Below, piece by piece: positions 20,085-39,501 of a stretch of 50,650 bases of DNA. A program made the position numbers and the translations under genes. Below the pieces are notes generated by a model. It did not search any database. It saw only the letters and a list, made by a program, of their open reading frames with translations, and was not told where the DNA came from. Each line of letters begins with the position of its first letter. Within the stretch, counting starts at the first letter, position 1. The stretch lies in IMG/VR virus record IMGVR_UViG_3300035164_000339, positions 1-50,650 of that record. One strand, 5' to 3'. This DNA comes from a virus. Taxonomy: Duplodnaviria; Caudoviricetes.

Positions 20085-21953
20085 TTACCAATTAGAGATA
20101 AAATTAGGCTTTTTAGCCGATTTAGTTTGATTTAATCTTATCTTAGCCTCCTTTAGAGGCTTTTTCTCTTCAAATCTCTTAGCAAATTGATCATATATAG
20201 TTTTTCTGTCATATTTTTGCAATAATCTTTGAAAACTAGCGTATGCATAGACCATTTCATCTAATGCTTCGTTAGCTTGGTTCTTTTTCTTAACCCAAAC
20301 ACGTTCTTGATACCCATTTTTGTGTTTTAATATTTGTCTTTCTGCTGTTAATTCTTCAAAGTAAGCCTGAGTTGTTGTTGGATAAAAATGTATATATCCA
20401 TGACCTACTTCTGCATCTTTTAGCTTGTTATGTAACGTAGTTTTGATAATATCAACACCAACTGGATATAAACCTAGTCCTCTCTTAAGAACTTTACCTC
20501 GAAAGTTAATATCTACCCTAGAAATCTTTCCTAATGGTGGTTTGCCCTTAATACCAATACCTTTTATACCTATCAAACCTAATTGTTCTCTTTCTCTAAC
20601 GTACTGATAAGTTTCTTGAGTGTAATGACCACCAGTATCGATAGCTGCTGTATCTATTTTTAATTCTTTACCATCTTCATTTTTATATTTACTTTGCAAG
20701 ACCTCATCAAGCTGCGCCCAGAGATCCGCTCTGGCTGGTGAGCCATATATAACTTTTCTATCAATAAGATACATTTCTTCATTACGACCAAAACCTATAA
20801 CTGACATACTTAATCTGTCATCCTGTACGTCAATACCTAACGTAAGTATTAGAACTTCCCTTGGTGGTATGCCTTCTTTGTATGTTTCTTCTGCTGCACG
20901 TTTTGATAATCCTTCTGCACTAGCTTTTGTATGATATTCATCTTCGTACACTTCTCCACAAGTTACGTTTACAAAAGTTTTTAGCTGTTCTTGGTCATCC
21001 TTACAAGCAAGAAACTCTTCCATTAAATTTTCCCAGCTTGCATTCGGTGAGTAAGAATATGCAGCCCATATATGAAAACCAACGTGCTTACCGTTAGATG
21101 GTGCAGTAGCTCGCCATTCGCCACGTTCTACCATCCATCTTTTTTTTGTATGAGGAATATGATGATTACATTTTTCGCATTTGTATATTGTTGTACTTGG
21201 ATCATTTTCAAAACACTCAAAATTTGCCCATCTTAGATACTGCATATGATTGCATTTTGGGCATGGTACATAATATCGCCGTTGATCCGTTTGATTAAAT
21301 AATTTTTCTATGCGACTAAAGTCTTTAACCGTTGGCGTTGACCCTGCAACTATTTTTCTGTTTGCAAAAAATTCTGTACGCTTTATTCCAAGCTTTATTT
21401 GATCACCTTCAGTTCCGGCAGAGGCTGGATAGCCATCTGTCTCATCAAACAGCACTATACGTCTAGATACTCTTCTAAATCCTCTAGGTGAGTTAGCACC
21501 TACAAGAGTTAAATTACCACCGGGAAATAATTTCTGTAAAAGTGTATTTTGACCATCTTTTGCTTTTGCGTCACTTACTAATCCTTGTAAACATTTTGTA
21601 TCACGAAGCATTGGCGCAATCTCTTCTTTTGAGTAACCTGTAGCATCTTCAATAGTTGGTTGTACGATCATTATTGGACAAGGATCGTTGTGAATGTGGT
21701 AAGCAATAATGTGATTAAGAATTTTAGAATATCCAACCCTTGCAGATTTCATAACTGATATTTGTTCAATATTAGGATCAGTAACTGCATCCATAATCCC
21801 TTTTTGATATGGCAATGTGCGCCACCTACCACCCTCTGCTGAACTTTCTACGGAAAGATATGCAAATTGATCGGCCCACGCACTAAGCGTTAATTTTTTA
21901 GGTGGTAAGAATGCTGCGTATGCTTTTTTTTCTAAATCGAAAATACTTGTCAT
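20085..21953 (-). CDS. Terminase large subunit, lambda GpA family
   Basis: KSARVGYS Walker A, LFDETDGYP, GSTPT, YYVPCPKC, GIDVQDDR, IDTGG, NEALD. Confidence 0.95.
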   Translation of the reverse strand: MTSIFDLEKKAYAAFLPPKKLTLSAWADQFAYLSVESSAEGGRWRTLPYQKGIMDAVTDPNIEQISVMKSARVGYSKILNHIIAYHIHNDPCPIMIVQPTIEDATGYSKEEIAPMLRDTKCLQGLVSDAKAKDGQNTLLQKLFPGGNLTLVGANSPRGFRRVSRRIVLFDETDGYPASAGTEGDQIKLGIKRTEFFANRKIVAGSTPTVKDFSRIEKLFNQTDQRRYYVPCPKCNHMQYLRWANFECFENDPSTTIYKCEKCNHHIPHTKKRWMVERGEWRATAPSNGKHVGFHIWAAYSYSPNASWENLMEEFLACKDDQEQLKTFVNVTCGEVYEDEYHTKASAEGLSKRAAEETYKEGIPPREVLILTLGIDVQDDRLSMSVIGFGRNEEMYLIDRKVIYGSPARADLWAQLDEVLQSKYKNEDGKELKIDTAAIDTGGHYTQETYQYVREREQLGLIGIKGIGIKGKPPLGKISRVDINFRGKVLKRGLGLYPVGVDIIKTTLHNKLKDAEVGHGYIHFYPTTTQAYFEELTAERQILKHKNGYQERVWVKKKNQANEALDEMVYAYASFQRLLQKYDRKTIYDQFAKRFEEKKPLKEAKIRLNQTKSAKKPNFISNW

Positions 21954-22591
21954 CCTAGTTGCCAATTATGTAAAAGTTCTAATTGATTAGATGGATACGG
22001 AGTTTCATCTAATACATTTTGAATTTTATTAAGTCTTGCTTTTGAATAAAATGGTTGATTTTTATACCATTCAATCATGTTTTTACTTCTTTTATCTTGA
22101 TTACATGAACGACAAGAAGGTACGATATTCGCCAAACAATGACTGCCATTATTTTTCTTGGGAATAACGTGATCTATTTCTAAACTATTTTGGTGACTTC
22201 TATCTAATATTTCTAATTTAATACCGCAATACGCACATTTATTATTAAATGTATTAACTCTAGCAATAATATTTTTGTGGAAAATTTTTTCTGCATGATT
22301 CAAACTGTCTTTAAATTTTTGTCTTCTACTTGCCTCTCGACTATATATTCTGCCTTCTAAAGTTTGATTCCAATTAATAGCTTTATTTTTATAATAATTT
22401 TTATTTTTTAAATAGTGTTTATGAGTTTGTATTTTTTTACAACAAACACATTTACCATTCTTTCTATCAGTAGGTTTGCATCTAACTGATTTGCCAGTAT
22501 TTCTATATTGATGATTATTACGACAAAGATCACCTAAATAATCGCCATGTTGAAATTCTCTATTATTTAACCAATTTATTATTTCACTCAT
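21950..22591 (-). CDS. HNH endonuclease
   Basis: CAYCG...IDHVIP...GSH...NIVPSCRSCN; N-terminal Cys/His cluster. Confidence 0.9.
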   Translation of the reverse strand: MSEIINWLNNREFQHGDYLGDLCRNNHQYRNTGKSVRCKPTDRKNGKCVCCKKIQTHKHYLKNKNYYKNKAINWNQTLEGRIYSREASRRQKFKDSLNHAEKIFHKNIIARVNTFNNKCAYCGIKLEILDRSHQNSLEIDHVIPKKNNGSHCLANIVPSCRSCNQDKRSKNMIEWYKNQPFYSKARLNKIQNVLDETPYPSNQLELLHNWQLG

Positions 22592-23076
22592 GCAACAGAT
22601 AATTCTTCTAAAGCTTCTCTAACAATGTCGTCAATACAACTAACTGCGCTGTTATCTAAATCAGGCAATCTTTGCTGCGCCTTTGATGCAACACCTAACA
22701 TTTTATTTCTTGTATTAGTAATAATCTTTTGCCAAGTATTGTTTACTTCTTCTACTGGAACAAGACTTTTTTCTTTTTCTTTACGCTCAAGCTCTAATAA
22801 CTCTGCTTTTAAATGCTCTGTTCTAGCCTTACTTTCGCCATACTCTGGATATTCAGTTTCAGATTGTGAAGATTTATATGTTTTATGTTCAATTTTTTTA
22901 ATTAATTTAGGCTCACTTCTTTTAGCCCACTCATCTTTCATCGTATCTGAGTTAATAACAATCTTGCCTTGATTATCTTTAATAGCCGTTAGTCTGCCTT
23001 GTTTTATAGCCATATATACAGCTTGGATAGTAACTCCCATCTCCTCTGCTGCTTGTTTTCTGGTGATTAATGCCAT
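22588..23076 (-). CDS. Terminase small subunit (Nu1-like)
   Basis: N-terminal HTH (RKQAAEEMGVTIQAV), KARTEHLKAEL.ELE...LVP coiled coil; first gene of the packaging operon. Confidence 0.88.
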   Translation of the reverse strand: MALITRKQAAEEMGVTIQAVYMAIKQGRLTAIKDNQGKIVINSDTMKDEWAKRSEPKLIKKIEHKTYKSSQSETEYPEYGESKARTEHLKAELLELERKEKEKSLVPVEEVNNTWQKIITNTRNKMLGVASKAQQRLPDLDNSAVSCIDDIVREALEELSVA

Positions 23077-23082
23077 AGAACT

Positions 23083-23263
23083 GTAAATGTTTTTATTTAC
23101 AATAGCGTAAATGTAAATATATGGTATAATACCGCATTTTTACTAGGGTTTGAGTAAATACCACACATCTAATATAGCGCAAATGTAAATACTGTAAATT
23201 TTTTGTGCCTACATATATTTTGCGATCTGAAAAACATCGCAGCGAGACAAGAAAAAAGAACCT
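23083..23263 (-). other. Candidate cos/packaging site
   Basis: Minus strand AGGTTCT (cf. lambda cosQ GGGTCCT) at 23257-23263, GCGAT/ATCGC inverted repeat at 23222-23240, TAGCGYAAATGTAAATA direct repeats at 23103 and 23175; upstream of TerS. Confidence 0.5.
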
Positions 23264-23649
23264 AATTAATTATACTTAGCAAAAAATGTATAACGCTTAA
23301 ATATTTTTAAGGCCGCTAATAATTTTTATAAAATATTATTTTAGCCGGCATATTTTGCGGCGAATTGTTTATATTTTTATGTGTTATTTTTGCGGCTATT
23401 GTTAACAATTAATGCCGCTAATTATTAGCATATAATTAACAATTAAGGCCGCTATTTTTGGCGCTAAGATATAAACAAATAAATAATATAAAAATATCTT
23501 TATAAGTTGCTAGTTTATGGCCGTTTAAGGCCGTTAAAAATTGTTTTATGGCCTAACATATCTAACAACAAAAAAGGCCGCCTTATAGCGTCATTACGGC
23601 CACTTATAGACATTATTTAATTATATTTATTATTGCTAATAATAGGCAT

Positions 23650-23699
23650 AAAAAAAGCGCTATAAAGCGCAAAAAAAAGGCGGCTAATTATGCCGCCTT
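23650..23699 (-). terminator. Tandem intrinsic terminators
   Basis: GGCGGC/GCCGCC hairpin + T8, then GCGCT/AGCGC hairpin + T7 (minus strand). Confidence 0.8.
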
Positions 23700-23706
23700 A
23701 AATTAT

Positions 23707-23868
23707 TTAATTAATCGGCCGGCGCGTATTACGGCGCTTAATTTCTTTAAGGCATTTTATTATTAGTTGGTTATCATCGCTATTTTTAACGATTGATTTT
23801 AAATAATTAATACTAACTTCTTTTAAATCTTGATTTGTTAGCGGTAAGATTTTAGGGTTAAAAGTCAT
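23707..23868 (-). CDS. Hypothetical protein (53 aa)
   Basis: Read by hand: MTFNPKILPLTNQDLKEVSINYLK...; ends just before the terminators. Confidence 0.6.
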   Translation of the reverse strand: MTFNPKILPLTNQDLKEVSINYLKSIVKNSDDNQLIIKCLKEIKRRNTRRPIN

Positions 23869-23889
23869 AACAAAAAATAAAAATAAGGT

Positions 23890-24936
23890 TTAATAAATTA
23901 ATTCAATAGAGCCGCCGCCGATATGTTGGCGGCCTATCTTATCAGCTACAAAAAAGGCGCTTAAAATGTCGCCGCCGGCGCTTTTTTTTGCTTTAAGAAT
24001 GCCGGCGCATTTTTGCGGATCCGCCGGCCTATAATCCGAGTTATCAAAACTGCGCGCCGGTAGGTCAACGCGGCGGCCGGTATTGTCCGAGATAATAACG
24101 CGGCGCGGTATCCGGTCGGCCTTATCTAAGGTAACCGGAACCGCCAAACGATAGCCGGCATTAATCGCGCTTATTGCATCGGCCGCGCCGGTCGGCCTAT
24201 CGGCTACTAATGACGCGGTAACGTCAACGCCTAACGCCTTTAATCGGTTTAAATAGCTTAACGGCGCTTTACTGTATTCATACCAGATAATTGAATCATT
24301 CTTAAAAATTTCAGATATTACGCGCGGTTTATCTGAATAAATAATATTTAACCCATAGTAAGAATTTATATTATTTATTTCATTAACTGATAAGTTAATT
24401 TTTTTAAAATGTATGTTATTTTCGTCAGTTCCCTTTAATCGAACACTAAGAGCGCCGCCGGCCTTTTTATAGTGATGCGCTATTGAATAAATAAGGCCGC
24501 GCGCGTAGGCGGTCGGCCTATCGATAGCCGCCAAAGTACGGCGGCCGCGCGCATATTGAACCGCCTTAAAAATGTTAGACCGTCCGGAGAATACCAAACA
24601 AGAGCGGCGACAGCCGGCCGAACTATAAGCGCAACCGGTATAGTTTTTTAATTTATTAGTTAAATTAAATTTTTTTGATAATTCCGATAATTCCGCGATG
24701 TATTGGCGGTTTATAGTGTCGGCCGCGTTATCTGAATTAATAACGGCGCTTATCTGCTTATCTGGTAGATGGTGCAGAATGACCGCCGGCGGCATCGCGG
24801 CGCTTAAATTTTTTGATATTTTGGCGTTACTTGTTGCGCCGGTCATTAATCCGCTAATACTTAGCGAATAATCATTAAAAAGCTTTTTAATGTCGTTAGG
24901 CGTATTTAAGCGCCTTTTAATAGAATTAGAGTACAT
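23890..24936 (-). CDS. Gp88-like protein (Cys-cluster, radical-SAM-like)
   Basis: NAKISK, C-x6-C-x3-C (CAYSSAGCRRSC), SGR, VRLKGTDE, YEYSK, DNSDYRPADP match the remembered phage GP88 family pattern. Confidence 0.65.
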   Translation of the reverse strand: MYSNSIKRRLNTPNDIKKLFNDYSLSISGLMTGATSNAKISKNLSAAMPPAVILHHLPDKQISAVINSDNAADTINRQYIAELSELSKKFNLTNKLKNYTGCAYSSAGCRRSCLVFSGRSNIFKAVQYARGRRTLAAIDRPTAYARGLIYSIAHHYKKAGGALSVRLKGTDENNIHFKKINLSVNEINNINSYYGLNIIYSDKPRVISEIFKNDSIIWYEYSKAPLSYLNRLKALGVDVTASLVADRPTGAADAISAINAGYRLAVPVTLDKADRIPRRVIISDNTGRRVDLPARSFDNSDYRPADPQKCAGILKAKKSAGGDILSAFFVADKIGRQHIGGGSIELIY

Positions 24937-24942
24937 AAAAAT

Positions 24943-24964
24943 AAAAAAGGCGCATTTAAGCGCC
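24943..24964 (-). terminator. Hairpin/terminator
   Basis: GGCGC-N6-GCGCC + T6 on the minus strand. Confidence 0.55.
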
Positions 24965-24983
24965 GTTAAGGTGTAATAAAAAA

Positions 24984-25379
24984 TTAAGTTGTTAATTGAT
25001 AAGGTTTATCCCATCGGCCGATATTTATATCTAAAAAGTAGGCCGTATGAAAATAATCGGTCATAATGTCCGACTTATCGAACCATAAAGCGCCTTTCAT
25101 AGCTTTTTTTAGATCCTCATAAAAATTAAAGATATCGATGTTAATATCTTTATATTTTTCATTAGTTGGCCGGTAGGCGTTAGCTTGATAATAACCGCTA
25201 CTTCTTAGACTACTAACGGCGGCGGCCGCGCCTAATAAATCGAGGCGGCCGGCGCTGACGTTAGCACATAACGTCATATGATTCTTAATTGAAATAGTTC
25301 CCTTAAGGCCGTATTTTTTAAAAACCGCCTTAATGGCCGGCGCTAGTGTTTTTTTATCTTCTTGAGAAATAAAAGCCAT
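24984..25379 (-). CDS. Conserved marine phage early protein (DxxTDYF motif, LPD29-like)
   Basis: MAFISQE.KK.LAPAIK..KKYG.KGTI and WFDKSDIMTDYFH...INIGRWDKPY. Confidence 0.65.
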   Translation of the reverse strand: MAFISQEDKKTLAPAIKAVFKKYGLKGTISIKNHMTLCANVSAGRLDLLGAAAAVSSLRSSGYYQANAYRPTNEKYKDINIDIFNFYEDLKKAMKGALWFDKSDIMTDYFHTAYFLDINIGRWDKPYQLTT

Positions 25380-25381
25380 GT

Positions 25382-25573
25382 TTAAAAGTTCCTTTTAATA
25401 AAGTTGATAATTGTTAGATATTCGCCGGTAGTAGGCGCGCCGACCGCGTCAACGTGGCTAAACTCTTTTAAATCGTTAACCTTTTGATATAAAAGATTTA
25501 AAACAGCCATCTTAGAGCGGCTAGACATACGCGGCGCTTTTTTTTGTTGGTTTAATGTGTAACTTAAAGACAT
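25382..25573 (-). CDS. Hypothetical protein
   Basis: 63-aa ORF directly behind a promoter. Confidence 0.6.
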   Translation of the reverse strand: MSLSYTLNQQKKAPRMSSRSKMAVLNLLYQKVNDLKEFSHVDAVGAPTTGEYLTIINFIKRNF

Positions 25574-25604
25574 TTAAAAAATAAATTGTAAAGTGTACTT
25601 ATTA

Positions 25605-25663
25605 ACAATAAAGGCGCGCTTTTTATATGTCGCGCCTATATATGACACTTTTATTATTGGCCG
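25605..25663 (-). promoter_or_regulatory. Sigma70-type early promoter with upstream GCCAAT-N7-GTGTCA element
   Basis: GCGACA-17-TATTGT; upstream GGCCAATAATAAAAGTGTCA. Confidence 0.6.
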
Positions 25664-25686
25664 GGTCGGGGAGTCTATAAGAGCGC

Positions 25687-25710
25687 AAAAAAAAAGCGCT
25701 TATTAAGCGC
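25687..25710 (-). terminator. Intrinsic terminator
   Basis: GCGCTT/AAGCGC hairpin + T9 on the minus strand. Confidence 0.7.
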
Positions 25711-25731
25711 CTTTTATATGTTGTTTAGTGT

Positions 25732-25875
25732 TTAGCTATCTTGTAATACTGTATTAATTGCCTCTATGCGCTCTAATTGGTAGGTGTTTAAAGTGTTAAA
25801 AATGTTTAAACCAGTTGAAGCGATAAGGCCGAAAATGACTGTAAAACAAGCAAGTTTTAAGAAATTAGTTGACAT
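25732..25875 (-). CDS. Small membrane protein (47 aa)
   Basis: Read by hand: MSTNFLKLACFTVIFGLIASTGLNIFNTLNTYQLERIEAINTVLQDS; own promoter and terminator. Confidence 0.65.
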   Translation of the reverse strand: MSTNFLKLACFTVIFGLIASTGLNIFNTLNTYQLERIEAINTVLQDS

Positions 25876-25897
25876 GGTGTAATGTGTAACTATTTAT

Positions 25898-25955
25898 ATA
25901 ATTACATTTTTATTTTTAAATGTCGCGTCTTAGTGGACACTTTTTAACCCGGCAC
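25898..25955 (-). promoter_or_regulatory. Early promoter with GTGCC-N10-GTGTC element
   Basis: GTGCCGGGTTAAAAAGTGTCCAC, then GCGACA-17-AATTAT. Confidence 0.5.
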
Positions 25956-26409
25956 ATATATTAGTTATGCTTTTGAATCCTTCGGCTAGTGTCGGCGGCG
26001 CTTTTTTTAACTCTTTATAAATAGCGGTTAATACATTAAACGGAACCACGCGCGCGCGCTCTTTATTTCGCTTATAAATAACGCTAAATGGATAATTAAA
26101 GTAATAAGCGCTTATATCTGTATATTTAGCGAAATTTTTAATAATCTTAGCGCGGTATTCTTTTTTAAAATGTGTACTATCTAAAATAATATTTTTATCG
26201 GCCTTTATAGCGTCTTTAATGCGATCATATAAGACCGCCTCTATATCTTGCCAATTTCCTTGTATATGTTCCGCGCCGTATAACTCGGCGCGCATTTTAT
26301 CAGTCGATAAAATAACCGCGTTTTGATGTTTGGCGGCTATTTTTGGCGCGGCGGTAGTCTTACCGGACGCGGGCGCGCCTATAAGCATAATAATTTTATT
26401 CATTATCAA
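25930..26409 (-). CDS. P-loop kinase (AAA_33 / polynucleotide kinase-like)
   Basis: GAPASGKT Walker A, STD..R, IILDSTH, RN..R.R.VP, PP...EGF. Confidence 0.85.
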   Translation of the reverse strand: MIMNKIIMLIGAPASGKTTAAPKIAAKHQNAVILSTDKMRAELYGAEHIQGNWQDIEAVLYDRIKDAIKADKNIILDSTHFKKEYRAKIIKNFAKYTDISAYYFNYPFSVIYKRNKERARVVPFNVLTAIYKELKKAPPTLAEGFKSITNICAGLKSVH

Positions 26410-26599
26410 AACTATCTATAAATTGATTTAATTTTTTATAAACTTTTAAAATATCATTATCGGTTAATTTATGGCCGGCTATTATTTCGCCGATTAAATG
26501 CGCGGCTAATTCTTTTAAATTTTTATCGCTAGTATTATTTTTCATAAAAAATAATAAGCTTAAATTTATAAGCGCGTCTTTTTTTGTTTCTTTTTTCAT
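26396..26599 (-). CDS. Hypothetical protein
   Basis: ORF in the minus-strand early operon. Confidence 0.6.
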   Translation of the reverse strand: MKKETKKDALINLSLLFFMKNNTSDKNLKELAAHLIGEIIAGHKLTDNDILKVYKKLNQFIDSFDNE

Positions 26600-26603
26600 T
26601 TGT

Positions 26604-26927
26604 TTAAACCTCACTTTTAAAAACTTGATAAGGCGCGCCGCCTTTTATCGCGTCATATTCGCGAATTGATAAGGCGCTTATATTTGTATGTTGTTGAAAT
26701 TTTGCGAGCGCGCCGGCGTTATATCCAAAAATACTAAAATAAACTTGTTTATCAAAATCAAAATTTATTTTTTTTCTATTAATTATTAATTGGTAGTTAA
26801 TGCCTTTATTTGTTTCTACATTAAATATATAAAAATAATTATCTTGATACTCATTAAAATAATTATCAAGTATTAACCTAAGTTGATTAATTGAGGCGTA
26901 ACAATAGCCGACTTTTTTTAATTCCAT
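26604..26927 (-). CDS. Hypothetical protein
   Basis: 107-aa ORF behind a TATAAT promoter. Confidence 0.65.
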   Translation of the reverse strand: MELKKVGYCYASINQLRLILDNYFNEYQDNYFYIFNVETNKGINYQLIINRKKINFDFDKQVYFSIFGYNAGALAKFQQHTNISALSIREYDAIKGGAPYQVFKSEV

Positions 26928-26965
26928 AGTTTAAAAAAAAGATAATTTTTCATTTTTAATTTTGC

Positions 26966-27020
26966 ATTATATCGGCCTTAATTTCGCGGCATAATATGCC
27001 GCTTTTTTAATTGGCCGGGT
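26966..27020 (-). promoter_or_regulatory. Early promoter
   Basis: TATAAT at 26971-26966; GCGGCATA/TATGCCGC palindrome; CCCGGCCAAT shared with the 25660 promoter. Confidence 0.5.
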
Positions 27021-27163
27021 AGACAATAAAATATATATAAAAAGTAATTTTAGAGCGGCGCATATTTTGCGGCCGGTTAAAAAATATTTTTAATTTTAGA
27101 AATTATCAAAAAATTATTATTTATTTTTTGATGCAAAAAAATATTTTTAAAACCATTATTTAT

Positions 27164-27186
27164 TTATTGAGAATTATTCTCAATAA
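27164..27186. promoter_or_regulatory. Perfect 11-1-11 palindrome, Fur-box-like
   Basis: TTATTGAGAAT-T-ATTCTCAATAA; core TGAGAAT-N-ATTCTCA fits the 7-1-7 Fur consensus. Confidence 0.6.
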
Positions 27187-27360
27187 GCATTAATTGAGTT
27201 TTTAAAAATTCTAAAATTAAATTTTTTAACCATATAACAAAAATTGTATGTAAAATCGCCGAGATCCCTTGCTATGACTACGTTTTTGGCATTTTTTGTG
27301 TGATTTTTTGTGTGTGAGAAAACCCGAAAAAGCCTGTGATACCAAGGGCTTATAACCATT

Positions 27361-27510
27361 ACCTTGCAAGAACAGCACCTTTTTTGACCCTAAACCGAAA
27401 AGTCGCCGTAATTTAGCGCACTATATACCAATACCTTGCAAGAACTGCACCACCTAAACCGATATACCGCAAGAACTTTGTGTGATATAGACCAGACCCT
27501 TGCAAGAACT
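27361..27510 (+). repeat. Cluster of four GCAAGAAC direct repeats
   Basis: Copies at 27366, 27438, 27469, 27502; three are CCTTGCAAGAAC; TAAACCGA occurs twice between them. Confidence 0.9.
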
Positions 27511-28260
27511 TCATCGTTTTGGATATGGTTTAATATATTTTTCTATTTTGCTTTTATAATATTTTTTTTCTTTTTTATTTCCTAAAAAATAGAAATATCT
27601 TTTTTTTGATGCTTGAGGTACAAATTTTGCATTTGGATAGCATCGTAAAATATCTTCTTTTTTTTCGCTACCTACCTTTTGACGCATAGATCTATTTGTA
27701 AAAAGTTTGCCATTTATCTCAACGCCAAAACGATCATTATCGCGGCTATTAACATTAGGATTATTTTCACGCATTGAGCCAATGTAGTAAAAATTACACG
27801 CTTGATATATTGTTCCGATCTCTCCAGCGTGTTCATCTACTGTTGCTGTTACAACCTTGTACTCCTCTGGAAGCATCTTCATAGAGCTTGTAATAAGCTT
27901 AGATGCACTATGTGGATGCGACCAATGCACACAAGCACCGCGCGATAAAAGAATTATTTTTCCGGTATAATCGTATTTATCCCATGTACCAAGGTTCTCG
28001 CTGTATTCGGTGCTGTAGACCACAGCGCCGCCAAGGTTGCCATCGAAATAAATCCCGAAACAATATTTGACCATAGCTGGCATACATTGAAGCCACTCAT
28101 ATCTTTTTATAAGATTTGATGCTGTCCTGTAATCTATCGGTTTGACGATAGATTTTTTAATGTCTATATCAATGTCTTTCCACCACTCCCCGAATAGGTT
28201 CCAAGCATCCTCTTTTGCCATCTTGTCTTTGATGCGTTTTTGATGCGCTATATCAGACAT
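27511..28260 (-). CDS. Mom-like (GNAT-fold) DNA modification protein
   Basis: VKPID...A...I, FGIYFDG.L.G.VVY, LLSRGAC, SASKLI, D...GEIGTIYQACNFYYIG, KKRYFYFL resemble the Mu Mom family. Confidence 0.75.
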   Translation of the reverse strand: MSDIAHQKRIKDKMAKEDAWNLFGEWWKDIDIDIKKSIVKPIDYRTASNLIKRYEWLQCMPAMVKYCFGIYFDGNLGGAVVYSTEYSENLGTWDKYDYTGKIILLSRGACVHWSHPHSASKLITSSMKMLPEEYKVVTATVDEHAGEIGTIYQACNFYYIGSMRENNPNVNSRDNDRFGVEINGKLFTNRSMRQKVGSEKKEDILRCYPNAKFVPQASKKRYFYFLGNKKEKKYYKSKIEKYIKPYPKR

Positions 28261-37816: not shown

Positions 37817-38067
37817 TGTCATTTACAAAATCAGAATTAGTAGATCGTTTATTACTTCATGTAAGAACAGATAATTACAAAGGTTTTTGCTCTGCTGTGG
37901 ATAGTGGTTATCAAAGATTTGGAGAAATAGAATTATACAAAATAATGACTAGCGACTTGCTAAAACAAATTTGTGATTGCGATGAGCTTGATACTTTCCT
38001 CAGTTGGGGAGACAAGCTACATGATGATGGCTTTAACAATTGGAAGGATAGGATAGACAATGTATAA
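37816..38067 (+). CDS. Hypothetical protein
   Basis: TAATG-coupled ORF. Confidence 0.65.
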   Translation: MSFTKSELVDRLLLHVRTDNYKGFCSAVDSGYQRFGEIELYKIMTSDLLKQICDCDELDTFLSWGDKLHDDGFNNWKDRIDNV

Positions 38068-38890
38068 ACCAGAAATTATTACTAACGCCGAATATCACGG
38101 CAGAAAAACACATTTATCTTCTACTAACATCCGCACGTTTAAGAAGAACAGAAAACAGTTTGAGTATAGTTTGACTCATGATTTAGTAAAACAAACTAAA
38201 GCAATGGCAGATGGTACTGCTGTTCATGCATTCTTTTTAGAACGAGATAAGTTTGATACTGACTTTGTTATTAAACCAGCAGATATGCGACTTAATACAA
38301 AAGCTGGTAAAGAATGGGCGCAAGAACACCAAAGTAAAATTATTATTGATTCTGAGCTTGGCAACAATCTGTATGAAATGGAGAAATCTTTCATGGATAG
38401 CCCAGCAAAATTAATCTACGATATCAAAGGACAAACAGAATTAAGCTATTTTTGGGATGATTTAGGCACAATTAAGGGTAAATGTAGGCCAGATTGGATA
38501 TCTAATGATGGAGAAATTGTTGTTGATTTAAAAACTACAACAGATGCAAGTCCTAGAGGATTTCAAAAGTCTATTGCAAACTGGGGCTACCATCTACAGC
38601 TTGGTTGGTATTTAAGAGGATTACAGAAACTTGGCTTAGATACATATGATTTTATTTTTATTGCAATAGAAAAGACACCACCTTTTTGTGTTGGAGTTTA
38701 TAGAGCAGATCGAGACATGATTAACTTTGCAATGAAAGAACTAGATCAACTTATGCCAGAAATACAAACTGCAATGGTGTCTAATGAGTTTCCAGACTAT
38801 ACACCAGAAATAACTTCTATTGGTCTTCCACCTTGGATGATCGATAAGAAAGAACAACAACCAGAACACGAGGAGGTAGAACTTTACTAA
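38060..38890 (+). CDS. RecE / exonuclease VIII-like PD-(D/E)XK nuclease
   Basis: EYH...LSS, GTAVH, KCRPDW, VDLKTT, YHLQ..WY, IEK.PP. Confidence 0.88.
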   Translation: MYKPEIITNAEYHGRKTHLSSTNIRTFKKNRKQFEYSLTHDLVKQTKAMADGTAVHAFFLERDKFDTDFVIKPADMRLNTKAGKEWAQEHQSKIIIDSELGNNLYEMEKSFMDSPAKLIYDIKGQTELSYFWDDLGTIKGKCRPDWISNDGEIVVDLKTTTDASPRGFQKSIANWGYHLQLGWYLRGLQKLGLDTYDFIFIAIEKTPPFCVGVYRADRDMINFAMKELDQLMPEIQTAMVSNEFPDYTPEITSIGLPPWMIDKKEQQPEHEEVELY

Positions 38891-39501
38891 TGACTTCAGA
38901 AATCACAACACAATCACTAGAAGGCGAATCTTCTATCTACAAGAACACAGATTCTTTTGAGTTTGCACAAAGGCAAGCAAAAAGTTTATGCGAATCTAAT
39001 TTAGTTCCTATTAGCTATCGAGGACAAAAAGGATTACCTAATTGTTTGGTGGCATTGGAAATGAGTAAAAGAATGAATCTTAGCCCTTTAACTGTTATGC
39101 AAAATTTAAATATTATTCATGGTACACCTACATGGTCAGCACAATTTATATGTAGTCAAATTATGGGCTGCGGTAGATTTGAAAACTTTGATTATCTTGT
39201 CAAAGGAGAAGGCGAAACACTTGAAGTGCAATGTATTGCAAAAAGGATAGCAGATCAAAAGTTAATAAAAGGCACAGCGGTATCTATGAAGATGGCTAGG
39301 TTAGAAGGCTGGACTAAAAACCCGAAATATACATCAATGCCGGAATTAATGTTGAAGAACCGCGCCGCAACATTTTTTGGCAGACAATATATTCCTGACC
39401 TATTGTTAGGAGTACAGACCAGCGAAGAGGTTGTAGACATACAACCTTTAGACGTTACACCTGAGACAGTAAAGGAGACTTTAGATGACCACGGAATGTA
39501 A
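38890..39501 (+). CDS. RecT-like single-strand annealing protein
   Basis: LVP..Y.G, NC.VALE, P..VMQN, P.W.A, MPELML..RA..FFGR; follows RecE. Confidence 0.75.
   Translation: MTSEITTQSLEGESSIYKNTDSFEFAQRQAKSLCESNLVPISYRGQKGLPNCLVALEMSKRMNLSPLTVMQNLNIIHGTPTWSAQFICSQIMGCGRFENFDYLVKGEGETLEVQCIAKRIADQKLIKGTAVSMKMARLEGWTKNPKYTSMPELMLKNRAATFFGRQYIPDLLLGVQTSEEVVDIQPLDVTPETVKETLDDHGM

Follow-up and report, generated by a model that had tools for sequence, protein, structure and literature searches.

A 4-kb phage island with ordinary GC content whose bases are sorted, and kept sorted, into strong and weak blocks

Why should four kilobases of a phage genome match the rest of that genome in GC content and yet order their bases in an entirely different way? 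The question is raised by positions 23265-27250, hereafter the island, of IMG/VR virus record IMGVR_UViG_3300035164_000339. The window analysed is this whole 50.65-kb record (50,650 bases), a marine, lambda/HK97-like cos siphophage, and the island in it holds a cassette of a Gp88-family gene, a Pnk-like kinase gene and six small open reading frames (ORFs), all on the minus strand. Composition islands in phages are usually read as recent imports, but here overall GC is not raised (0.342 in the island, 0.357 in the genome) and it is the base order that is extraordinary. Below, S stands for strong (G/C) and W for weak (A/T) bases, and the junction ratio is the observed number of S/W class changes divided by the expected number.

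The island contains 1097 S/W junctions where 1794 are expected over its 3986 nt, a junction ratio of 0.61 compared with 1.03 in the left flank and 1.00 in the right. The block composition proposed for this stretch in a preliminary description, made by a model from the letters and an ORF list, is thus real. Trinucleotides that change class twice are depleted accordingly, with 121 SWS against 307 expected and 318 WSW against 590 expected. The hand count in that description for 23281-23880 was exact (GC 0.282, 5 SWS against 34 expected), and its estimate of a partial, two- to three-fold depletion in the longest gene agrees with the 40 SWS found in Gp88 where 112 are expected (0.36). Such values are rare in the background: among 80 loci related through the terminase, one 250-nt window at a single locus falls below 0.75, and ORF-free DNA elsewhere in this genome has a pooled junction ratio of 0.97. 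The inner edge is sharp, the sliding junction ratio being back at 0.91 from 27251 on.

The S runs have a character of their own. Symmetrised dinucleotide odds in the island are 2.22 for CG and 2.41 for GC, compared with 0.67 and 1.29 elsewhere in this phage, while CC/GG reaches just 1.18 and the four S/W junction pairs lie at 0.55-0.70. Compared with a geometric distribution, by our own arithmetic, the run lengths (which include 319 single-base S runs) are too few at 2-4 bases and too many at 5 or more. GGG and CCC are nearly missing from the runs: GCCC is absent and GGGC occurs once, where a null preserving the S/W pattern predicts 25-28. As the preliminary description held, the usual avoidance of palindromes is reversed: GGCC occurs 34, GCGC 63, CCGG 28 and CGCG 43 times where composition predicts 3.4 each, and palindromic 4-mers in total are raised to 483 from an expected 298. 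The flanks have a negative GC skew, and in the island the skew is close to 0.

The sorting reaches into codons, and across them. At third positions in the island the S share is 0.76 for Ala, 0.77 for Gly, 0.78 for Arg and 0.68 for Pro, compared with 0.16, 0.19, 0.18 and 0.13 in the background, and Lys is AAA in 75 of 95 codons and Leu TTA in 57 of 87; third positions do copy the class of the bases before them, as had been noticed at the outset, and the remaining genes do prefer GCA/GCT, GGT/GGA, AGA and CCA. In the eight island ORFs the probability that a third position is S is 0.86 when both the second position and the first base of the next codon are S, 0.32 and 0.37 with one S neighbour, and 0.15 with two W neighbours, whereas in 25 long ORFs from the rest of the genome it is 0.17-0.22 in all four contexts. 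The first base of the next codon sways third-position class as much as the codon's own second base. Since this effect crosses codon borders, it is a DNA-level, strand-symmetric neighbour effect rather than a codon preference. Spacers are as blocky as genes (junction ratios 0.51, 0.57 and 0.65), which bears out the earlier statement that the pattern spans coding and intergenic DNA alike. Codon usage alone fails as the cause: shuffling synonymous codons within the island yields a ratio of 0.748 +/- 0.009 (minimum 0.721) and none of 500 shuffles reaches the observed 0.637, so that the control named beforehand as capable of refuting the pattern does not reproduce it, and recoding the island proteins with the phage's own codon usage gives 0.957. 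Junctions between the first and second codon positions stand at 0.725 in the island against 0.94, and since these two positions are already sorted, the amino-acid make-up of the island proteins is itself bent. The coding signal is absent, with period-3 S/W power of 0.82 in the island and 6.55 in ordinary DNA of the same loci; tools based on codon usage or GC content would misjudge such regions, in which period 3 is missing though the genes are real.

Is this order a relic, or is it maintained? We built codon alignments and trees of 25 Gp88 and 30 TerL genes and counted class changes on terminal branches where sister and outgroup were unanimous and the classes of the neighbours stable. At Gp88 third positions, S-to-W change rises from 0.020 between S neighbours through 0.089 and 0.099 in mixed contexts to 0.134 between W neighbours (Fisher p 1.5e-8), and W-to-S change falls from 0.083 through 0.054 and 0.043 to 0.022 (Fisher p 0.002). 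The S equilibria implied by these rates (0.81, 0.38, 0.30 and 0.14) match the observed frequencies of 0.90, 0.33, 0.35 and 0.09, and total changes at these positions number 349 S-to-W and 314 W-to-S. Third positions of the other island genes repeat the context dependence (p 5e-7 and 0.003), as do non-coding sites of the island (p 6.5e-10 and 0.007). TerL is flat, at 0.062-0.085 for S-to-W and 0.039-0.043 for W-to-S (p 1.0 and 0.53), and so are the upstream Mom, ligase and helicase genes on the same contigs (p 0.43 and 0.37; 7 taxa). The base order of the island is held near equilibrium by a local, symmetric coupling between neighbours that is absent from genes on both sides. Natural variation alone thereby shows that the order is upheld in its present place, and that the force upholding it does not reach past the island.

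The branches on which changes fall speak to the nature of that force. Run-breaking and run-making changes in Gp88 stand at 155:52 on terminal and 51:35 on internal branches (p 0.011), against 246:182 and 160:103 in TerL (p 0.43). The excess of run-breaking changes on terminal branches means that such variants appear frequently but do not last, as is characteristic of a fixation bias. Measured against TerL, favoured changes are about 2.1 times as fast, while disfavoured ones proceed at 0.32-0.51 of the TerL rate; by our arithmetic, one scaled coefficient of about 1.7 would yield 2.08 and 0.38. We infer that the coupling is a weak bias in fixation that disfavours S/W junctions, its scaled strength being about 1.7 per site, and neither a mutation bias nor the relic of a donor. 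A phage-wide mutational equilibrium unmasked by weak expression was considered and rejected, given the ratio of ORF-free DNA and the flat silent sites of TerL and the upstream genes. The preliminary conclusion that selection acts on the DNA itself therefore stands as far as a DNA-level effect is concerned; selection is likely but unproven against biased repair. The island is a natural system for studying non-coding selection on viral DNA: it comes with two internal controls within the same genomes, ocean metagenomes hold dozens of its diverged copies, and the strength of the force can be measured.

Gp88 has 248 homologues, most of them carried by short contigs of marine origin. Wherever Gp88 is at least 74% identical, as it is at 36 loci (L001 and L143-L177), the same 3.5-4 kb are blocky and the sequence further out is ordinary, and cassette gene order is kept in every one of these loci. 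Identity to one long relative, L146, is 85-89% in the island and 86% outside it, and since the two are alike, the island has been inherited with the phage and is not evolving faster than its flanks. No blocky stretch longer than about 4.5 kb appears in these 36 loci, in 55 distant Gp88 loci or in the 80 terminase loci. A donor with this composition throughout, which would have undone the preliminary description, was accordingly not found among these loci, to which the search was confined.

The 55 distant loci (Gp88 33-44% identical) behave differently. Their Gp88 genes are 65-76% GC, exceed the rest of the locus by at least 0.07 in 50 of 55 cases and have sharp edges; ten of the 55 keep the order Gp88, spacer, TerS, TerL. 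Among those ten, L089, L124, L085 and L130/L135 show S/W clustering of a weaker kind: their ratios are 0.78-0.85 and their third positions depend on context, whereas their TerL genes lack such context dependence. The rest of the ten are just rich in GC. In L089, from a 63%-GC phage (ratio 0.79), A/T runs are the oddity. Gp88 lies within about 1.1 kb of a contig end in 15 of the 55. In two loci from phages of about 50% GC (L087 9416-11083 and L100 9842-11029) the island consists of Gp88 alone, at 66-71% GC, and each of its edges takes up less than 250 nt; both loci have an HNH-like gene downstream on the other strand, and the Gp88 of L087 carries a Pro/Ala-rich N-terminal extension. Five genomes share about 75% TerL identity with this phage; one has a very distant Gp88-like gene at the corresponding end and four have none. 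That one, G001 (L138, C1:1-3000), is a complete 55.5-kb genome with a TerL 75% identical, in which a 3-kb end of 14-25% GC (30-35% in the genome) holds a Gp88-like ORF of 25% identity and a homologue of the 107-aa ORF of 34% identity and is not blocky. Homologues of the 131-aa cassette protein occur in large myophages, and the one in Melnitz-3 is not blocky (ratio 1.05). Compared with the phage collection, island DNA gave no near or distant match except a 69-nt piece, and flank DNA gave none.

Where the island lies on the chromosome can be read from the contig ends of relatives. On the terminase side, 12 of 80 contigs begin exactly at 23237 and about 26 more distant ones at the homologous base; on the island side, ends fall at 23222-23253 (L147 at 23222, L148 and L152 at 23225, L165 at 23227). 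The two sets of ends overlap by about 16 nt, as a cohesive end would. The inferred cos thus lies within some 30 nt of the island edge, and the island is the terminal 4.0 kb (7.9%) of the chromosome, with the terminase genes on the other side of cos. The preliminary description had noticed neither this closeness to the cohesive-end site nor that distant phages, too, have compositional islands around Gp88. Two runs, X1 and X2, perhaps from the source sample, have contigs that span cos, and depth (contig word depth) is flat there; one contig is continuous from upstream of 22000 to 25265 without a difference. Flat depth with bridging contigs implies that there is no long terminal repeat and that the island is single-copy, and a direct terminal repeat was rejected on the same grounds, word depth being mostly 13-19 in the island (26 in one 217-nt bin) against 14-18 in the flanks. 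Between TerS and cos, at 23085-23215, the composition is ordinary and a hexamer GTAAAT/ATTTAC recurs many times by eye; these repeats are candidate terminase-binding sites and are nearly identical in L001.

Several kinds of signal were sought in the island and set aside. SASNY (S-A-S-N-Y), which we take to be the Mom target consensus, is not avoided, with 75 SASNY and 46 SASNR and a Y share of 0.62 against 0.49 elsewhere. A model in which C is lost when preceded by W is not borne out: a G..C border occurs in 69 of 230 runs of at least two, no more than in the rest of the genome. RNA folding exceeds that of dinucleotide shuffles by little at most (z -1.4, -1.8 and -0.2). As for helical phasing, a broad hump at 10-16 bp was seen together with a lone AA/TT point at 11.45 bp, from pooled, related sequences. 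Nor does one oriented motif run through the island, in which no word dominates and the largest strand imbalance, 9 against 2, belongs to one 7-mer.

The roughly 440-nt cos-proximal spacer at 23265-23706, the blockiest stretch of all, has peculiarities of its own. The rarity of GA/TC noted earlier for 23281-23760 was counted correctly (8, against 29 CA/TG, 34 AG/CT and 23 AC/GT) but is not island-wide: across the whole island GA/TC occurs 247 times and the other junction pairs 256, 315 and 279 times. In the spacer it is found 6 times against 22-33 for the other pairs, and in all 20 relatives examined the spacer has 3-12 GA/TC against 13-35. CGGCC, often as CGGCCTT, is oriented 5:1 in the last 440 nt and appears on the gene-sense strand 3-7 times against 0-2 on the opposite strand in 17 of 17 relatives; all 11 genomic copies of CGGCCTT lie within the island. 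The rarity and the CGGCC repeats may reflect a set of binding sites for a protein, a cluster of the Chi type or the trace of some process specific for TC.

What, then, holds the order in place? Because the edge of the island falls at cos and the bias operates both toward S and toward W, we put first, as the most likely cause but only tentatively, weak DNA-level selection on how the duplex at the chromosome end behaves physically or is handled. In lambda, the corresponding end is packaged last and ejected first. By that analogy the island would be the DNA that is packaged last, sits at the portal and leaves the capsid first, with an end that terminase would not cover, and stable G/C clamps would alternate in it with easily opened A/T stretches. 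Were physical handling of the end the cause, the island would bear on both packaging and ejection. Bolder, and rather doubtful, is the idea of an undescribed constraint on the DNA polymer at this last-packaged, first-ejected end, under which bases would be selected or enzymatically corrected to match the class of their neighbours. The result would be a 'block copolymer' of stable and meltable runs, under a force that erases codon periodicity, bends proteins and goes, in varying form, with the widespread Gp88 cassette in phages of 33% to 63% GC. Several points weigh against selection on handling of the end. Which end enters the cell first is an assumption taken from lambda, and we know of no physical mechanism that reads S/W runs. 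The sharp inner edge at 27250 is the edge of the cassette, with no gradient by distance from the chromosome end, and the 10-16-bp hump is too broad to count as a sharp helical period. The low-ratio windows of L089 lie over Gp88 and its upstream gene, not over the cos-adjacent spacer. Relatives with the same gene order (L098, L102, L123, L125 and L088) have Gp88 regions that are simply GC-rich, and that of G001 is AT-rich, so no mechanical requirement common to all of them is apparent. Where the phage has about 50% GC, Gp88 alone forms a GC-rich island that is not beside this terminase type, which links the anomaly with the gene and not with its location. The contrast between terminal and internal branches is, finally, modest and parsimony-based.

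The fixation signature fits gene conversion as well as it fits selection, and neighbour-dependent biased repair or conversion, in which mismatches at the open end would be corrected toward the surrounding class, is an unlikely alternative. An open end beside cos is where exonucleases and recombinases load and heteroduplex is frequent. PMC12315714 describes a left end occluded by terminase and a right end open to RecBCD, and the island adjoins cos on the side that, in lambda-type phages, is free of terminase. This phage also encodes a RecE-like exonuclease, linkage disequilibrium (LD) in Gp88 decays within about 10-30 nt, and GC-biased conversion would produce a GC enrichment of Gp88 such as that of 50 of the 55 distant loci. 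Against this, S-to-W change between W neighbours is about twice that of TerL (0.134 against 0.064), so the bias must favour A/T in A/T surroundings and an ordinary GC-biased conversion tract does not fit. The inner edge is sharp, there is no gradient, and LD and four-gamete failures do not differ clearly between Gp88 and TerL (0.72 against 0.57, from different contig sets). We know of no repair system with such a context-directed property; if it exists, it would be a new evolutionary force in microbes. Somewhat less probable is that the pattern belongs to the cassette, either as a Gp88 module that moves among phages with a composition set elsewhere or through Gp88 or the kinase acting in cis on nearby DNA. 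Gp88 regions are unlike their phage in nearly every lineage (GC-rich in most distant loci, AT-rich in G001, blocky here), their sharp edges coincide with the cassette, the Gp88 of phages of about 50% GC with another terminase type is a GC island by itself, and the 131-aa homologue outside such a cassette is not blocky. Yet the island diverges in step with its flanks and keeps its gene order, its substitution process is near equilibrium in place, no locus is blocky beyond about 4.5 kb, and Gp88 lacks a recognisable enzyme fold, just as family scans of the cassette found no deaminase, glycosylase or methylase domain.

Avoidance of restriction or defence motifs in first-injected, unprotected DNA, as in T5 and T7-like leading regions, has only a slim chance of being the answer. 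The position would be right if the island end enters first, and according to PMC12455610 Type I restriction is determined by where a motif lies within the leading region. There are 35 mixed 4-mer palindromes, against 100 expected from base composition, and GA/TC is rare in the terminal spacer of every relative examined. Once the S/W pattern is kept in the null, though, none of the eight mixed palindromes departs from it (z -1.6 to +1.5), so that restriction-motif avoidance is not supported. Non-palindromic words with two junctions are depleted as well (0.54), S-only palindromes are up 8- to 18-fold, and no oriented or dominant word runs through the island. A local mutation bias, slightly less probable again, would have last-packaged DNA strained and long unrepaired in the virion, so that isolated G/C bases are damaged faster and G/C runs protected. 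The terminal position, the strand symmetry and the speed of S-to-W change between W neighbours speak for it; it leaves unexplained the four- to nine-fold higher W-to-S change between S neighbours, the terminal-versus-internal contrast and the sharp inner edge. Hardly any weight goes to a GC-rich import that decays toward the AT-rich composition of the phage and leaves G/C runs behind. Distant Gp88 genes are indeed rich in GC, and S-run words such as GCGC, CGGC and GCCG, with almost no GGG/CCC, resemble high-GC bacterial DNA. A decaying import should not, however, show raised W-to-S change between S neighbours, context-specific equilibria that equal present frequencies in three independent site sets, nearly balanced third-position changes in Gp88, or the same clustering in a 63%-GC phage where it is the W runs that stand out. 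The substitution counts thus uphold the preliminary claim that neither an ordinary GC shift nor such amelioration explains the island.

Known systems resemble the island in part. Lambdoid morons and accessory islands occupy the cos-proximal right end, as non-essential genes between late or modification genes and cos with their own promoter and terminator. The island has consensus-level promoter-like and terminator-like sites and a composition unlike its flanks, but its GC equals that of the phage, and what differs is a base order maintained in place instead of fading. The GC clusters of yeast mitochondria are short G/C patches in A/T-rich DNA, yet those are discrete, mobile, palindromic elements of tens of bases, while the island runs are mostly Ala, Gly, Arg and Pro codons of conserved proteins that change base by base. 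In T5, whose first-step-transfer region is the first 7.9-8%, and in the T7-like leading region, content is shaped by what meets the DNA first. Like them, the island occupies about 8% of the genome at one end and carries accessory genes. Those regions, however, lack particular motifs where the island has a general deficit of class junctions, and the T5 region is a long terminal repeat where the island is single-copy; entry order is here assumed from lambda. PMC12315714 describes Chi clusters near the open right end, one oriented octamer in lambdoid phages without a recombination module. The island has G/C-rich oligomers at the same map end and its oriented CGGCC in the last 440 nt, but it uses many S words without clear island-wide orientation, in a phage with a RecE-like exonuclease. 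GC-biased gene conversion, described in PMC7846184 for recombining regions including those of AT-rich genomes, is also a fixation bias on base class independent of coding, and the distant Gp88 regions are GC-enriched; in the island the bias instead flips sign with context and total GC is unchanged. In the literature searched, supplements lying outside the search, we found no description of S/W-block islands in phages and no mention of PF17338.

Table 1. Features of the cos-proximal island and of the genes and sites mentioned in the text
Feature	Position	Strand	Evidence and remarks
TerL	20085-21965		
HNH gene	21950-22591		
Small terminase subunit TerS	22588-23076	-	phrog_57, E 1.9e-23; junction ratio ~1.0, ordinary composition
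Inferred cos cleavage zone (virion DNA ends)	23222-23240		contig ends of relatives
Cos-proximal non-coding spacer, ~440 nt	23265-23706		blockiest stretch; junction ratio 0.51, GC 0.28
Two terminator-like hairpins, cassette end	23657-23699	-	consensus scan only
53-aa ORF, indel-polymorphic segment	23707-23868	-	no Pfam/PHROG match
Gp88-family protein, 348 aa	23890-24936	-	PF17338, E 1.7e-6; phrog_1617; no assigned function
Hairpin between 131-aa gene and Gp88	24949-24964		consensus scan
131-aa protein	24984-25379	-	phrog_10415, no assigned function
63-aa ORF	25382-25573	-	no family (Pfam, PHROG)
47-aa ORF, hydrophobic	25732-25875	-	no family (Pfam, PHROG)
P-loop kinase, 159 aa, polynucleotide-kinase-like	25930-26409	-	PF13671 AAA_33, E 2.3e-21; phrog_505 polynucleotide kinase
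72-aa ORF	26396-26614	-	no family (Pfam, PHROG)
107-aa ORF, first cassette gene	26604-26927	-	no family (Pfam, PHROG)
AT-rich blocky spacer, island inner edge	26928-27250		junction ratio 0.57, GC 0.21
Promoter-like site	27155-27183	-	consensus match 10/12
Mom-family DNA modification protein	27511-28260	-	PF25680, E 3.2e-23; ordinary composition
RecE-like exonuclease	38060-38890		

The cassette proteins offer few functional clues (Table 1). Gp88 scores 28.5 bits against PF17338 (GP88), whose curated cut-off is 24.4, over residues 69-167 only, and the precomputed family hits of most of its homologues agree. Its predicted model has a mean-confidence score (pLDDT) of 81; a fold search of the PDB returned nothing at E<=0.001, and the best E in a sequence search of the PDB was 0.11. 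A tblastn search of cultured phages with Gp88 gave no match, and species genomes gave only two, both on contigs of metagenome-assembled genomes. Neither Gp88 nor the small ORFs have an NCBIfam or PADLOC family. Among Gp88 homologues of 36-78% identity a Cys-x6-Cys-x3-Cys motif (Cys 102, 109 and 113) is invariant, as are RGRRTLA, GTD and YSK motifs. Atlas look-alikes (DUF7227, score 0.91) are no more than a lead. The kinase has a weak, sub-threshold match to the NCBIfam Pnkp kinase domain, and the search of viral contigs found no relative of P0109 or of the kinase. The promoter-like and terminator-like sites are consensus-level matches only, and the three matches to known RNA families (Rfam) all lie far below the gathering score. 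The segment around the 53-aa ORF, 23711-23877, is skipped in the alignments of four of the eight long relatives (L146, L148, L152 and L165) and replaced by unalignable sequence in L147.

Beyond the island the phage encodes a portal protein, a protease-capsid fusion, a tape measure, a J-like tail protein, helicases and a ligase. In the terminase region the HNH gene at 21950-22591 is missing from L146 and L001, where alignments jump from 22588 to 21953, and TerS directly precedes TerL in most relatives; this looks like a free-standing mobile HNH gene rather than a fixed packaging factor. At 38060-39501 a 203-aa ORF of the plus strand comes after the gene for the RecE-like exonuclease, and the pair is likely the phage's recombination module. 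Between the inner edge of the island and the Mom gene, at 27317-27513, lie three 61-nt direct repeats that are 61-70% alike, each ending in the same 12-nt core; the spacer around them has ordinary composition, and they are conserved only in close relatives. The overlapping bin 27425-27641 shows a contig-depth spike of 44-160, against about 2-17 nearby, in four seawater runs.

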